Assembly (NCBI GenBank): GCA_038045945.1
Contig: JBBSXC010000003.1
Span: forward strand, 64,001-128,000
Reading direction: 5' to 3'
Length of the DNA: 64,000 nucleotides
Origin: Nanobdellota archaeon
Lineage (GTDB): Archaea > Nanobdellota > Nanobdellia > Pacearchaeales > GW2011-AR1
The notes beneath the pieces were generated by a model. The model saw only the letters and a program-made list of their open reading frames with translations. It had not been told where the DNA came from and searched no databases. Position 1 is the stretch's first letter. Each line of letters begins with the position of its first letter. Made by a program: the position numbers and the translations under genes. This document shows, one piece after another, positions 19 to 39,404 of the stretch.

Positions 19-753
19 ATGATAAATCCTGACATAATAAGGTACTTTAAAGAAGGAATATGGAAAGGTTACACTCAAGAATTCTTAAAACAAAACTTAC
101 TAAAAAACGGATATGACATAAACGAAGTAGAAGAAACAGAAAGAGAACTAATAAGACAAGTATCACTAGAACCAAAAATAGGAAAATTTGAAGGCTATAT
201 TAAAAAAAATTGGAAGAAGATAATGCTAGCAGGAATAATCCTATTAGCAATAATAATCGCTGCAACAACAATAAACTGGAAAGGCAACAATGAGGAAGAC
301 CTTATAATAAATGAGAATATAACAATGATTACTTGTGATGGAACAAAAAACCAGTTATTAGTAGAACCAGGACAAGAAATATCATACTTACAAATAACAA
401 ACGCACAAGAACAACAACTAAGAGACTTAAACCAGAACAGACTAATAGAAACATCATACACAATAAACATCCCTTTAGAAAAAGCAACAATAATAAAACA
501 AGAATACTACCTAATAACTGATCCTAGCGAAGCTAACGGAACAAGCACAAACCAAGTATCAAAAAACAAAACACAATTCTTAACATTATCAAACATTAGC
601 GGAATAGAAGAAGGAAACGACAAACTGGGAAAAATGATAAAGACATGGCAGAACAGAAGTATAAGCACATATGAAGAATTCGAAGTAAACACCATATACA
701 TAAATTTAGGAAACCAGAGCAGAATAATAAGTTACACTTGTAACACTGAATAA
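19..753 (+). CDS. hypothetical single-pass membrane protein
   Basis: 244-aa ORF; N-terminal 'GY..E.LKQNLLKNGYD..EVEE' small helical domain, then TM segment IMLAGIILLAIIIAA. Confidence 0.7.
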   Translation: MINPDIIRYFKEGIWKGYTQEFLKQNLLKNGYDINEVEETERELIRQVSLEPKIGKFEGYIKKNWKKIMLAGIILLAIIIAATTINWKGNNEEDLIINENITMITCDGTKNQLLVEPGQEISYLQITNAQEQQLRDLNQNRLIETSYTINIPLEKATIIKQEYYLITDPSEANGTSTNQVSKNKTQFLTLSNISGIEEGNDKLGKMIKTWQNRSISTYEEFEVNTIYINLGNQSRIISYTCNTE

Positions 754-36428: not shown

Positions 36429-36722
36429 TTATTCAGACTTACTAGAATCATAACGATAACCCATGTTCTTCAAATCAGACTTATAAAGTTCAGAAACACG
36501 CCTAAGATCATGACTTATAGAACCAGAATTAGCAACACTCCCATCAGGACTAACAAAAAACTTATCAACATCAGCCTTATCATGAACAATCTTTTCTAAA
36601 CCACTAAAAAGAAAAATAATAGAACCAACACCAAAAGCTAAAAGAACAGATTTAGCAATAGAAGAGATAGCAAGATCATAAACCTCACTAAAACCATAAG
36701 AGTCGCCACACTTATTTACCAT
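36429..36722 (-). CDS. hypothetical single-TM protein
   Basis: 97-aa ORF with upstream TATA-like element. Confidence 0.55.
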   Translation of the reverse strand: MVNKCGDSYGFSEVYDLAISSIAKSVLLAFGVGSIIFLFSGLEKIVHDKADVDKFFVSPDGSVANSGSISHDLRRVSELYKSDLKNMGYRYDSSKSE

Positions 36723-36796: not shown

Positions 36797-37375
36797 TTAC
36801 ATTCCTTTCTTCTTTTTTAACAAATCAATAATTTTTGGTGAAACAGAGGGCTTTCCATCAATAAGAGGATAACGATAAGGGAGAATTATTGATTCTACAT
36901 CATTAATCCTAACTTCCAACCTATCGCGAAATTTTAGTTCACCAAAAACTTTTTTGTTATTAACAATTTTGTTAACAACCCACACCGCATTATCGGTTGA
37001 TAATTGTTTATCACCAATATTACGAATATCAGCATCTGGCAAAAACTGCGTTAGTTCCTTATTAGTACGCTTCTTAGGAGGATAATCACCTAAGATGCCG
37101 CCAAAAACAAAAAATTTGAATTTTGCGGAATCATCAGGACTCAAGAGTTGATCAGCTTGAGGATCAAGAACACAAGAATAATTAAGACTCATCTTACTAA
37201 CAGAATCCTTAAACACTTTACCAAACTTAGAAATTTTAGACCTATCAGTTTTTGACTTAACATTTGTTAACCACAAATTATCCTTTCCAACAATTGAAGA
37301 AATTCTCTCATACTCAATAAGAACCCACTTAGAAACTCGCGGTTCCAAATGCTCAATAACAAATACGGCACTCAT
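36797..37375 (-). CDS. SPOUT methyltransferase, Sfm1/DUF431 family
   Basis: VIEHLE, W..IEY, VLDP, FGGILGDYPP..RT, RNIGDKQLSTDNAV. Confidence 0.88.
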   Translation of the reverse strand: MSAVFVIEHLEPRVSKWVLIEYERISSIVGKDNLWLTNVKSKTDRSKISKFGKVFKDSVSKMSLNYSCVLDPQADQLLSPDDSAKFKFFVFGGILGDYPPKKRTNKELTQFLPDADIRNIGDKQLSTDNAVWVVNKIVNNKKVFGELKFRDRLEVRINDVESIILPYRYPLIDGKPSVSPKIIDLLKKKKGM

Positions 37376-37623
37376 CTTTTAGCCCTTATACTAGCTAAGT
37401 AATCACTCTTACTAACACCATTCTTAGGAACAACGTAAACTTTTGAACCTATCTGCAATCTATCACCAGGCATAACAAAACTCCTTATCTCTCCATCAGG
37501 ACCACCAATGATTAATCCACCACTATGAGAAGAATAATTTAGTCCGCCAGCAATCTCACCATTAAGAGTCGTAACCAGGCCTATCTTACCTTCAAGATCA
37601 TTAACAGTCAATACTGAAACCAT
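37372..37623 (-). CDS. hypothetical protein
   Basis: 83-aa ORF whose stop overlaps the SPOUT gene start (ATGA). Confidence 0.55.
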   Translation of the reverse strand: MVSVLTVNDLEGKIGLVTTLNGEIAGGLNYSSHSGGLIIGGPDGEIRSFVMPGDRLQIGSKVYVVPKNGVSKSDYLASIRAKR

Positions 37624-37669
37624 AAAAATAACAACAAAAACACTATTTTTATACTTTATTAATAATAAG

Positions 37670-37819
37670 TTACTTTCTTTTCTTCTTAGAACCAGACTTC
37701 TTCCTTAAAGACTTAATAACTTTTTTAACAGTTTTCTTTTTACCTTTAAACAATTTCATAAACTTCTTAATTTTAGAATGCCTAGTCTTTTTCTTATTAC
37801 GCTTAACTCTTTTTGCCAT
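37670..37819 (-). CDS. small ultra-basic protein (49 aa)
   Basis: MAKRVKRNKKKTRHSKIKKFMKLFKGKKKTVKKVIKSLRKKSGSKKKRK. Confidence 0.6.
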   Translation of the reverse strand: MAKRVKRNKKKTRHSKIKKFMKLFKGKKKTVKKVIKSLRKKSGSKKKRK

Positions 37820-37839
37820 TGTTCTTTTTTTGATTTTAA

Positions 37840-38070
37840 AGAGCTGACGATCTGGACTCAGTGAGGAGTGCCTCAACCGGTTCGGATTAATGTGCTTAAC
37901 CTCTCCGCCAGTTATTAAAGGTTATCTCCGTCGTGCTTGTGATGTGCTTAATGAGTACAGGTTTCATAAAGCGAGTTATAGTCCAGTCGCTAAATTAATT
38001 GTTAGCACCCAACATAGGCTTATACAAGTACATCCTTTCCAGGACAACTGATTTATCCCCAGTCAGCTCT
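37840..38070 (-). ncRNA. putative structured non-coding RNA of unknown family
   Basis: 9-bp terminal stem AGAGCTGAC/GTCAGCTCT; several internal hairpins whose G-U pairs favour the - strand; TATAAATA box at 38100-38093; more GC-balanced than flanks. Confidence 0.65.
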
Positions 38071-38177
38071 AAAATAATTCAAGACTAAGAAGTATTTATA
38101 GTTGACTTACCACTAAAGAATTACTAGAAAAAGGGCTTTTTGACAAAACTTAAAAACCTGCGATTAGTAAATAATTC

Positions 38178-39404
38178 ATGAGAAGACACCTAACACCAGT
38201 AGGAACAGGAGTTAGCCTAGGATCAATGATCGTACCTAACGAATTCTTAGCAGGACTAGAAGTAGTTGACTTCAAAAAAGGAGCACTAAACCCCGGTGAA
38301 ATAAGCACTCTAACAGTTGAAATAATGCAAAAAGCAAGCGGGGGCGACATGAGCAAAGACGGAAAAGGAGAACTAAAGGGAGATGGAATAGGAATAAAAT
38401 CAAGAAGATGGCTAAGACCCGTAGGAAAAAAAGAAGAACTAAAAGATTTAGCAATTAAAGCAGCAATTAAAGCAGTAGAAAGCACAGGAATGGACCCTAA
38501 AGAATACTTATCAGAATTAAAAGTAATAATGTCAGCCCACGAAAGCAGGATACCAAAATACCCAACACTAGCACAAAGAGTACAAGAAGGACTAACAGAA
38601 CATTATGGAATAAAACTAAACATTGATTACGCACAAAACACATCTTTTGCTTGTGCAGGATTCCCAATAACACTACTAACAGCAAACGCATTAGTAAGAG
38701 CAGGAGAAGTAAACGGTAACGTATTAGTAGTTGGAGCAGAAGACGTTAAAGGCCTGGTAAGAAAAACAAAGGAAGGAAGATACGACGTGAGCATTTACTT
38801 ATTCGGAGTTGGAGCAGCAGCGATGGCATCAAAAACAACAACAGAAGAACACGGAGCACAAACACCAGGATACGTCAAAAGCATGCCCTACATGTCAGAA
38901 GTAGAAAGAAAGGCAAGAATGAGCAATAGTGCAGCATTATATGACGATGTTGACACACACATAACAATGGCTGATGGAGCATTAGTAAAATCAGGAGCAA
39001 TAGACTACATGAGAAGATCAATTATTGATCAAATAAAGAAACACAACCCTAAAGGAGAGAGAAGAGTAGTTGTTTGCCCACACCAAGCTAACGGAAGAAT
39101 CAACGGACCACTAGAAAGAGATTTAAGAAGAGAAGGAATACTAAGAATTACAGACTTATACTACGCTTCCGGACTAGAAGATAATGGGAACATATCAGTA
39201 CCAGCATGCCTAACAGGATTTGACTCTATGGTAAGAGGACAAGACTACCAAAGAAGAGCAGTTAGAGAAGGACAAATACTGCCTAACGACCTAGTAATAA
39301 TAACAGCAGTAGGAGCAGGGATGAGCGGATCAGCAGCATCAATAATAATGCCGCCAAAAGCATTAGCTTACATGCCAGAAATGGTAAGAAGACAATACTC
39401 ATAA
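38178..39404 (+). CDS. fabH: beta-ketoacyl-ACP synthase III (FabH)-like protein
   Basis: GIKSRR, catalytic Cys in FACAGF, VLVVGAE, LFGVGAAA, PHQANGRI (His), GNIS (Asn), AVGAGMS. Confidence 0.85.
   Translation: MRRHLTPVGTGVSLGSMIVPNEFLAGLEVVDFKKGALNPGEISTLTVEIMQKASGGDMSKDGKGELKGDGIGIKSRRWLRPVGKKEELKDLAIKAAIKAVESTGMDPKEYLSELKVIMSAHESRIPKYPTLAQRVQEGLTEHYGIKLNIDYAQNTSFACAGFPITLLTANALVRAGEVNGNVLVVGAEDVKGLVRKTKEGRYDVSIYLFGVGAAAMASKTTTEEHGAQTPGYVKSMPYMSEVERKARMSNSAALYDDVDTHITMADGALVKSGAIDYMRRSIIDQIKKHNPKGERRVVVCPHQANGRINGPLERDLRREGILRITDLYYASGLEDNGNISVPACLTGFDSMVRGQDYQRRAVREGQILPNDLVIITAVGAGMSGSAASIIMPPKALAYMPEMVRRQYS

Follow-up and report, generated by a model that had tools for sequence, protein, structure and literature searches.

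What is the structured RNA that lies in front of a strongly basic peptide gene in a member of the Nanobdellota, and how is it related to the peptide? The question was raised by a 64,000-nucleotide (nt) stretch of DNA from a Nanobdellota archaeon (assembly GCA_038045945.1, contig JBBSXC010000003.1, positions 64,001 to 128,000 of the forward strand), which we refer to as the window and whose positions we count from its first letter. A first-pass annotation of the window, made from the sequence alone, had pointed to an unannotated RNA of about 230 nt on the minus strand, behind a TATA box of its own and ahead of a 49-amino-acid (aa) open reading frame (ORF) rich in lysine and arginine. It had considered a new class of non-coding RNA, a highly derived RNase P RNA or signal recognition particle (SRP) RNA, perhaps bound by the peptide, or a large regulatory leader. 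We find it highly probable that the RNA represents a new family of structured RNAs in the class Nanoarchaeia (DPANN archaea) and, as part of the same claim, that it is made as an intron at a motif of the bulge-helix-bulge (BHB) type and closed into a circle. What had been observed at this locus is partly confirmed and its interpretation is partly supported.

A covarying fold with a long-range loop pairing

The structured RNA that follows the TATA box is about 235 nt long, and its terminal stem, P1, encloses about 210 nt. Its G+C content is 39-41%, compared with 22-32% directly downstream. The conservation and covariation that the first-pass annotation had named as the check on this RNA were found in 88 distinct homologues (alignment A3). 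In this alignment, 94.0% of the cells pair, compared with 80.2% in column shuffles and 36-43% when the partners were slid as a control. Changes on both sides were seen in 50 of the 67 pairs, and none of 500 shuffles reached the observed values on any of five measures. Folding the single sequence gave a modest gain over shuffles (z = -2.59). The circle described below, folded as a single sequence, showed no gain over mononucleotide shuffles (z = -0.70); this prediction departs from the comparative structure and was not used.

Overall, the fold is a four-way junction with nine nested helices, together with a long-range pairing between loops, CUGGAC:GUCCAG (coordinates and helix-by-helix support are given in Table 1). 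P2, P3, P4 and P7 meet in a perfect four-way junction with zero linker bases. Individual pairs illustrate the covariation; for instance, pair 33/274 of P2 is GC in 74 sequences and AU in 14. P3 ends in a GNRA-type tetraloop, which is GGAA or GAAA in relatives. The long arm holds an invariant internal loop in which AGAUAACC faces GG(C/A)ACU, as well as a conserved GGUUAAGAUUGAUU region, and its helices show changes on both sides in four of seven pairs (P7), nine of ten (P8-P9) and four of six (P10).

The loop pairing is strongly supported by covariation. Covariation is seen in three of its six pairs, none of which has an unpaired cell at the positions concerned. For example, AU occurs in 69 sequences and GC in 19 at pair 107/278, and UA in 61, AU in 22 and CG in 5 at pair 104/281. 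Additionally, whole variants of the two strands occur in relatives (CGGACU/AGUCCG, AAGGGCU/AGCCCUU and CUGAAC/GUUCAG). The complementarity between CUGGACU (37986-37980) and AGUCCAG (37858-37852), from which a pseudoknot had first been suggested, thus reflects a genuine long-range contact of the RNA.

The fate of the hairpins proposed earlier was mixed. The 9-base-pair (bp) stem is present and is P1, the hairpin GUCCU-GGAA-AGGAU is P3, and AGCGA...UCGCU is P6. The proposed hairpin UGUUGG/CUAACA is displaced by the long-range helix P5, and the hairpins UAACCUUU/AGAGGUUA and UGAGG/CCUCA give way to P7 (GACGGAG/CUCCUC) and P8 (CCUU/GAGG); in each case the replacement covaries better. A repeated sequence, UUAAGCACAU, does occur twice as reported (37951-37942 and 37899-37890), but it is specific to the window, and its second copy lies in an insertion that the other rows of the alignment lack. 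The homologue alignments showed no conserved C/D or H/ACA boxes. The circle sequence contains no ORF, with stops in all three frames, and a search of the genome for a copy or an antisense target of the circle returned only chance words of 11-14 nt.

A bulge-helix-bulge-like motif at the borders of the RNA

In a BHB motif, a 4-bp helix lies between two 3-nt bulges that hold the splice sites, and the 5′ exon supplies one strand of the central helix; relaxed motifs are substrates of broad-specificity types of the splicing endonuclease EndA (according to the available sections of PMC7714728 and PMC4090602). Folding of the linear precursor yields this order: P1, 3 nt, a 4-bp helix (H), 3 nt and P2. 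On the 3′ strand, P2 is followed by the GUCC strand of H, by AGA then UC, and by P1. Both flanking helices are present, the outer helix h being P1 (9 bp in the window) and the inner helix h′ being P2 (5 bp), and both covary. Thus, the terminal stem of the first-pass annotation does pair, but it is the outer helix of a splice motif that the annotation had missed.

H with at least three of its four pairs, together with a first bulge (B1) of exactly 3 nt, was found in 75 of 109 unique homologues; 28 lacked H and 6 could not be parsed. Support for H comes from conservation and from about five compensatory cases seen by eye, among them L025, L043, L046 and L130. In two of these, both partners of the GUCC strand change together with it (GAAC, CUGAAC and GUUC in L025; GGGU, CUGGGC and GCCC in L043). 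The GUCC strand has two partners, GGAU in H and the loop of P6, and the two pairings are mutually exclusive. Such a pair of exclusive partners would be expected if H belongs to the precursor and the loop pairing to the circle, where P2 is capped by a 7-nt loop, GUCCAGA.

The position of the promoter differs between homologues with and without the splice motif. In homologues with the motif, the start of the TATA box is mostly 41-47 nt ahead of P2, and in those without it mostly 28-31 nt, a shift of about the length of P1 plus H. Based on these distances, transcripts appear to start at P1 in the forms with H and at P2 in the forms that lack it. Thus, some members of the family are introns and others a plain 5′ leader. 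The enzymes that such an intron would need are encoded in the window's genome: the catalytic domain of EndA was found at 91.6 bits and the ligase RtcB at 556.8 bits.

As a separate matter, one contig that carries the RNA (L125) also encodes two tRNA genes (69-167 and 212-341, minus strand) with insertions at the anticodon loop and the T arm, of 15+20 nt and 15+41 nt. This suggests that several introns per tRNA and a broad-specificity splicing endonuclease occur in these lineages.

Circular forms in metatranscriptome contigs

Contigs of four public metatranscriptome runs (X5, X7, X8 and X11) were aligned to positions 37600-38160. Run X7 (sediment) and run X11 (ice), which come from different studies, hold one 231-nt contig each, and both contigs are circularly permuted. 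Their joint leads from 38049 to 37849, a step back of 201, with an identical stretch of 30 bases at the two ends of each contig. As 231 nt is 201 + 30 in an assembly that uses 31-letter words, these contigs indicate that the 201 nt form a closed ring. The three letters AUC can be assigned to either side of the joint, so that the junction is ambiguous by 3 letters; it is consistent with cleavage behind the second base of both bulges (A-A/A and A-G/A, the stroke marking the cut). Thus, the linear RNA of about 230 nt ending at 37840 that had been predicted is replaced by a mature circle of 201 nt (38052-37852).

Run X8 (freshwater), from a third study, holds 126 contigs of the RNA family. Loose ends in this run contain the same junction in relatives, with …GAGUCCAU joined to AUCAG…. 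Run X5 holds a linear 258-nt contig with P1 and the start of an ORF, which represents either precursor RNA or DNA.

Distribution of the RNA family

A blastn search found the RNA in 12 of 60 related genomes besides the window's own, at 69-79% identity. We built a covariance model (R1) from 10 sequences, with which the window's RNA scores 199.5 bits. R1 matched 38 of 151 genomes of the order and 14 of 151 genomes of a phylum-wide sample, the window's genome (G000) being counted in both. All genome matches fall within the same class. A degenerate pattern of two conserved motifs picked out at least 120 stretches in a collection of species-representative genomes. When R1 was run on 100 sources, namely the window and the first 99 of 120 pattern loci, 89 matches were obtained, and 87 of the 99 pattern loci matched at 139-251 bits. 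We take the 12 negative loci to be chance matches, because their spacing is longer and the titles shown for them are bacterial. Contigs with the RNA are labelled Woese-, Pace- or Nanoarchaeota in public records, and at least 87 of them lie beyond the genome searches. A scan of viral contigs with the pattern gave 0 matches.

The RNA can be duplicated without the peptide gene. One contig (L052, 508-966) carries two abutting RNA copies before one peptide gene, and the copies have diverged (195.6 and 225.4 bits). Another (L125, 509-744 and 842-1077) carries two identical copies, 333 nt apart, with one peptide gene. In some genomes of one genus, two cassettes of RNA and peptide gene are present.

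Some contigs that carry the RNA bear public labels outside this lineage (L117, L078, L084, L089, L094, L113, L121, L049, L050, L058, L060, L070, L097 and L099); the labels are Saccharibacteria, Methanosarcinales or Micrarchaeota. Either these are mislabelled bins or the family extends past Nanoarchaeia.

A small basic protein linked to the RNA

The 49-aa ORF lies where it had been reported, and the family comparison ties it tightly to the RNA. It belongs, as a diverged member, to a family of small proteins (alignment A4) whose core reads G-R-x-P-S-x-K-S-K-x-S-K-V-K-K-L-I-K-L-A-K. Among the 122 pattern matches listed, some of which are bacterial chance matches or loci truncated at contig ends, 94 have an ORF with the motif SK(V/I)xK(L/I/M) after the RNA. 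In these 94 homologues, the spacing between the loop pairing and the AUG is 22 nt at the median and ranges from 2 to 158 nt. T-runs of at least five are uncommon between RNA and ORF, with no conserved T-run or terminator, and longer spacers often contain a GGUG-type ribosome-binding site. That the ORF has no promoter of its own, as the first-pass annotation stated, is correct; the reason, which it did not give, is that the RNA is the intron or the leader of the peptide mRNA.

The coupling is also seen in whole genomes. A profile of the peptide matched 31 of the 151 genomes of the order, always beside the RNA. All 31 are among the 38 genomes with the RNA, and none of the 113 genomes that lack the RNA has the peptide. 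Pfam and NCBIfam hold no family for the peptide and returned two chance-level matches for the window's own copy. A large protein collection contains 81 relatives, every named one of which is called 'hypothetical', and the ESM Atlas at 0.95 returned only the peptide's own cluster. Among neighbouring genes of at least 60 aa at 36 loci, none besides the peptide gene is conserved, and the largest shared cluster covers 4 loci.

Comparison with known RNA families

The RNA had been described as unannotated and outside Rfam, and this description holds. At gathering thresholds, Rfam gave 0 matches in the whole window, and at E values up to 10 the region 37500-38300 gave only a chance match to a long non-coding RNA, outside the RNA. 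The tandem-copy loci (L052 and L125) allow a further test for a permuted relative of a known family, because any rotation of the RNA lies there in one piece; Rfam found only neighbouring tRNAs and chance matches in them.

The idea of a derived RNase P or SRP RNA was rejected. The candidate does not match RNase P RNA (RF00373) at E values up to 10, and the genome has its own copy at C4:2325-2672 (L001 1501-1848; 49.4 bits, E 2e-13, full model). Nor does it match SRP RNA (RF01857), whose genome copy lies at C3:162915-163175 (L002; 84.1 bits, full model). Both of these housekeeping RNAs score below the Rfam gathering values (49.4 against 84 for RNase P, 84.1 against 96.5 for SRP), and the RNase P RNA gene lies about 1.2 kb past the end of the 23S rRNA. 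Standard annotation would therefore miss both, and it under-calls RNAs in these lineages.

No description of the RNA family was found in the literature searched, a scope without most subscription journals or the supplements of circular-RNA surveys. In its available part, a paper on archaeal rRNA circles (PMC12918454) mentions neither other circular RNAs nor these lineages. A preprint on viroid-like circular RNAs (10.1101/2022.07.19.500677) states, in the part available, that DNA-encoded sequences may contaminate the set of circles. The present family illustrates that closed RNA circles in metatranscriptomes can have a template in cellular DNA.

A model for the production and role of the RNA

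Based on these results, we propose a model for how the RNA is made. Transcription would begin at about 38070, behind the TATA box and at the first base of P1. The precursor would then fold into the BHB motif, with P1, H (GGAU:GUCC), the bulges AAA and AGA 3′ of H, and P2; for this folding step we rely on sequence, conservation and the few compensatory changes. EndA, whose gene is present, is predicted from the junction to cut at A-A/A and A-G/A. RtcB may then close the 201-nt intron (38052-37852) into a circle and join the exons, which would leave a short hairpin leader before the 49-aa ORF. Once H is gone, GUCCAG would lie in the 7-nt loop of P2, where it could kiss the loop of P6 and lock the compact four-way-junction fold. 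In the relatives that lack H, about a quarter, the same RNA would be a 5′ leader, apparently transcribed from P2. In this way the biogenesis is predicted to the base, in its enzymes, its cut sites and its junction. Of the parts of the model, the new family, its fold, the loop pairing, the leader position, the BHB-like borders, the 201-nt RNA circle and the presence of the enzymes are all either directly evident or strongly supported.

The second part of our model addresses what the RNA does. We favour a circle that acts in trans together with the peptide, because RNA and peptide form an inseparable pair, because the RNA and not the ORF is duplicated, and because the RNA is released from the mRNA in most members. 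Taken whole, the reading of a BHB intron RNA that sits in the leader of a lysine- and arginine-rich peptide and functions with this peptide seems to us evenly balanced between right and wrong. That the RNA partners the peptide with which it is co-transcribed, whether in an RNA-peptide particle or by binding the peptide, is suggested by their genomic association; we put it forward tentatively, with the chances slightly against it. It is rather doubtful that circle and peptide form a dedicated particle, which would be the first conserved circular non-coding RNA of prokaryotes with a protein partner of its own.

Several findings weigh against this model. The RNA is accessory: among 69 genomes of high quality in the order, only 11 carry it, and for five members of the same family with near-complete genomes, laxer filters returned only matches at E values of 0.01 or worse. 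A strict BHB test classed 12 of the 109 homologues as canonical and 52 as relaxed on the P1 side, whereas 38 failed the contiguous-pair test and 7 could not be parsed. The window's own motif is relaxed, with 3 unpaired bases opposite the 5-nt side of the second bulge (B2). Formal counting of H on alignment A3 gave no double-sided change. As 28 of the 109 homologues lack H, circularity is not essential to the function of the family. Finally, the circle is known from assembled contigs of close relatives (95-99% alike), contigs give neither strand nor abundance, and the contigs of the four runs contain neither the exon-exon junction nor any cover of the ORF (37670-37819). The fabH-like side of the locus is likewise uncovered in these runs, and the contigs say nothing on expression.

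The main rival is that the RNA is a leader or intron that acts mainly in cis on the peptide gene, the circle being a by-product. Such an element could be a riboswitch-like or protein-binding leader that controls translation or, in the BHB forms, a control of splicing, for example in autoregulation by the peptide. This explanation stays alive because of the forms without the splice motif (28 of 109), in which only about 7-20 nt separate the AUG from the 3′ strand of the loop pairing. Two exclusive partners for one strand, as GUCC has, are a typical mark of RNA switches, the fold equals those of large riboswitches in complexity and conservation, and the one known BHB intron in a 5′ untranslated region (UTR), that of HVO_1309, is thought to affect gene expression (available part of PMC7714728). 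However, the transition from BHB motif to circle accounts for the exclusive pairings as well, and no ligand or expression platform is evident. In most homologues the RNA is removed from the mRNA, and its circle turns up in two to three studies, which counts against a cis element; the two loci that duplicated the RNA and not the ORF also speak against it, as do the spliced leaders with longer spacers, which have GGUG-type ribosome-binding sites of their own. We therefore consider cis regulation as the main role to be somewhat unlikely, if the strongest of the alternatives.

Other explanations are weaker. RNA and peptide could form a selfish cassette akin to a toxin-antitoxin system, in which a cationic, amphipathic, KLIKLAK-like peptide harms membranes or nucleic acids and the abundant, structured RNA neutralizes it by binding, in the manner of type III toxin-antitoxin systems. 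The peptide core may resemble peptides of the KLAKLAK type. The strict co-occurrence (31 of 31 peptide genomes have the RNA and none of the other 113 has the peptide), the patchy distribution within families and genera, the changing neighbour genes, the promoter that serves an RNA and a protein on one transcript in that order, and the duplicated RNAs and doubled cassettes would all fit. Yet the peptide has no nuclease or known toxin domain in Pfam or NCBIfam, the RNA is made by host splicing enzymes and not by the protein, with ends at a BHB motif, and viral contigs gave 0 matches; this makes a toxin-antitoxin role improbable. Less likely still are two further proposals. A mobile BHB intron that spreads alone, with the peptide gene as its usual landing site, would explain the patchiness, the tandem copies and the two copies per genome in one genus. 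It would not explain the constant place in the leader of the same peptide gene, nor why an intron that needs only a BHB motif for EndA should keep nine covarying helices and invariant stretches, and keep its fold even in forms without the splice motif; the circle also encodes no homing endonuclease or other ORF. The last proposal is a circularly permuted or extremely derived known RNA (RNase P, SRP or guide RNA) that was missed because of the permutation. Archaea do make a circular, permuted SRP RNA, Rfam models are blind to permuted genes, and the GNRA tetraloop and conserved A-rich junctions recall large ribozymes. Against this stand the RNase P and SRP RNAs elsewhere in the genome, the negative result of Rfam on the tandem loci at E values up to 10, alignments without conserved C/D or H/ACA boxes, and the absence of the RNA from most related genomes, which is unlike a housekeeping RNA. 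Both the selfish intron and the permuted known RNA are thus unlikely, and we hold to a circle that acts with the peptide.

If circle and peptide do form a dedicated particle, the intron is the main product of the gene and the exons encode its partner, like the eukaryotic host gene of a small nucleolar RNA turned inside out. The activity of the particle would then be specific, be it catalytic, ligand-binding or aimed at the host cell of these symbionts. BHB introns in protein-coding transcripts are very rare in archaea, and what is new here is a widespread, strongly covarying fold of about 200 nt that would be circularized by tRNA-splicing enzymes and is tied to one small protein. The family adds a class of RNA to the DPANN archaea, whose genomes are minimal, so that every conserved element is likely to matter. 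Additionally, the forms with and without the splice motif are a natural experiment on what circularization adds.

Relation to known systems

Among known systems, HVO_1309 of Haloferax volcanii comes closest: its 5′-UTR holds a BHB intron of 46 nt, which was found circular and was cut by EndA in vitro (Schwarz et al., 2020; available part of PMC7714728). The two cases have in common a BHB-flanked intron in the 5′ leader of a protein mRNA and a circular product. They differ in that the HVO_1309 intron is 46 nt long with no structure or function reported in that part of the article, whereas the RNA described here has 201 nt, nine covarying helices and a loop-loop pairing, occurs across a class and always accompanies one small protein. 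The sole other BHB intron in an mRNA that the available text of PMC7714728 names is that of cbf5 in Crenarchaeota (Watanabe, 2002; Yokobori, 2009). It shares with our RNA a BHB intron in a protein transcript and the tRNA-splicing endonuclease. However, its place is within the coding sequence of a housekeeping gene, with no stable structured RNA reported in the sources to hand, and ours lies in a leader.

Other introns are known to yield stable RNAs. The tRNA-Trp intron of Haloferax releases a box C/D RNA, and the tricRNAs of metazoans come from tRNA introns (the latter after the available part of PMC4536317). As far as these sources go, in both cases the intron is stable and often circular and is released by tRNA-splicing enzymes, as here. 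The host in those cases is a tRNA, and the archaeal product belongs to a known class of guide RNAs, whereas our RNA comes from an mRNA leader and belongs to no known class.

The SRP RNA of Thermoproteus is circular. Archaeal pre-16S and pre-23S rRNAs and a circular 23S rRNA are likewise made at BHB motifs (available part of PMC12918454). From what these accounts cover, cleavage by EndA at a BHB processing stem and circularization by a ligase are shared with the pathway proposed here. The rRNA and SRP circles are universal housekeeping RNAs, whereas the present family is accessory and occurs in roughly a tenth to a quarter of the genomes searched.

In type III toxin-antitoxin systems such as ToxIN, an endoribonuclease toxin processes a repeated RNA antitoxin. 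Our locus is similar in that a structured RNA lies upstream of a protein, is co-transcribed with it and may bind it, in that the distribution is patchy and in that the RNA can be repeated. It is dissimilar in that the protein lacks an endoribonuclease domain and the RNA is not made by it.

The locus and its neighbourhood

The window belongs to an archaeal genome of 847 kb in 7 contigs that is 93% complete. Table 1 gives the features of the locus.

Table 1. Features of the RNA-peptide locus and its neighbours (positions in the window; helices of the RNA are read on the minus strand)
Feature	Position	Strand	Remarks
TATA box TATAAATA	38093..38100	-	from sequence; about 25 nt ahead of the 9-bp stem P1
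5′ exon of leader	38053..38070	-	P1 5′ strand, H 5′ strand, first two bases of B1
P1, 9 bp	AGAGCUGAC 38070-38062 with GUCAGCUCU 37848-37840	-	changes on both sides in 8/8 pairs
H, central helix, 4 bp	GGAU 38058-38055 with GUCC 37857-37854	-	in the precursor fold
Bulge B1, AAA	38054-38052	-	exactly 3 nt
Intron = mature circular RNA, 201 nt	37852..38052	-	P2 to P10 and loop-loop pairing
P2	UCAGU 38047..38051 with ACUGA 37862-37858	-	99.3% of cells pair
P3, hairpin GUCCU-GGAA-AGGAU	38032..38045	-	99.3% of cells pair; changes on both sides in 2/5 pairs
Middle domain P4-P6	37933..38031	-	P4, P5, P6
P4	38031-38025 with 37938-33	-	changes on both sides in 6/6 pairs
P5, UGGGUGC/GUACUCA	38011-38005 with 37958-52	-	changes on both sides in 7/7 pairs
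P6	37994-88 with 37973-67	-	changes on both sides in 6/7 pairs; loop carries CUGGACUAUAACUC
Long-range loop pairing	CUGGAC 37981..37986 (P6 loop) with GUCCAG 37852..37857	-	96% of cells pair
Long arm P7, P8-P9, P10	37863..37932	-	comparative
Bulge B2, AGA	37853-37851	-	followed by two unpaired bases, UC
3′ exon leader	37820..37851	-	last base of B2, UC, P1 3′ strand, 20-nt A-rich spacer
Peptide ORF, 49 aa, 55% lysine + arginine	37670..37819	-	starts 20 nt after P1
fabH-like divergent gene	38178-39404		weak ACP_syn_III match
83-aa ORF and 97-aa ORF	within 36429-36722 / 37372-37623	-	no Pfam match; downstream of the peptide gene
SFM1-like SPOUT methyltransferase	36797-37375	-	PF04252, E 1.4e-51; between the 83-aa and 97-aa ORFs

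The TATA box and a divergent, fabH-like gene are present as first described. Proteins with an RRM domain, which the first-pass annotation had named as possible binders of the RNA, were not found; the downstream 83-aa ORF has no Pfam match. Other genomes keep neither this ORF nor the 97-aa ORF nor the SPOUT methyltransferase next to the RNA. In the whole 64-kb window (1-64000), ARAGORN detected no genes for tRNA or transfer-messenger RNA.

A TATA-like box is kept upstream of the RNA in homologues. A further box, A(G/A)T(G/A)(G/A)T, lies at 38112-38121, 5-12 nt upstream of the TATA box, and is present in at least 50 of the 109 homologues, often with ACT four bases ahead of it. We dropped this box as a specific operator of the RNA, as a loose pattern for it occurs ahead of 43 TATA-like boxes genome-wide; it seems to be a promoter element in general use in the lineage.

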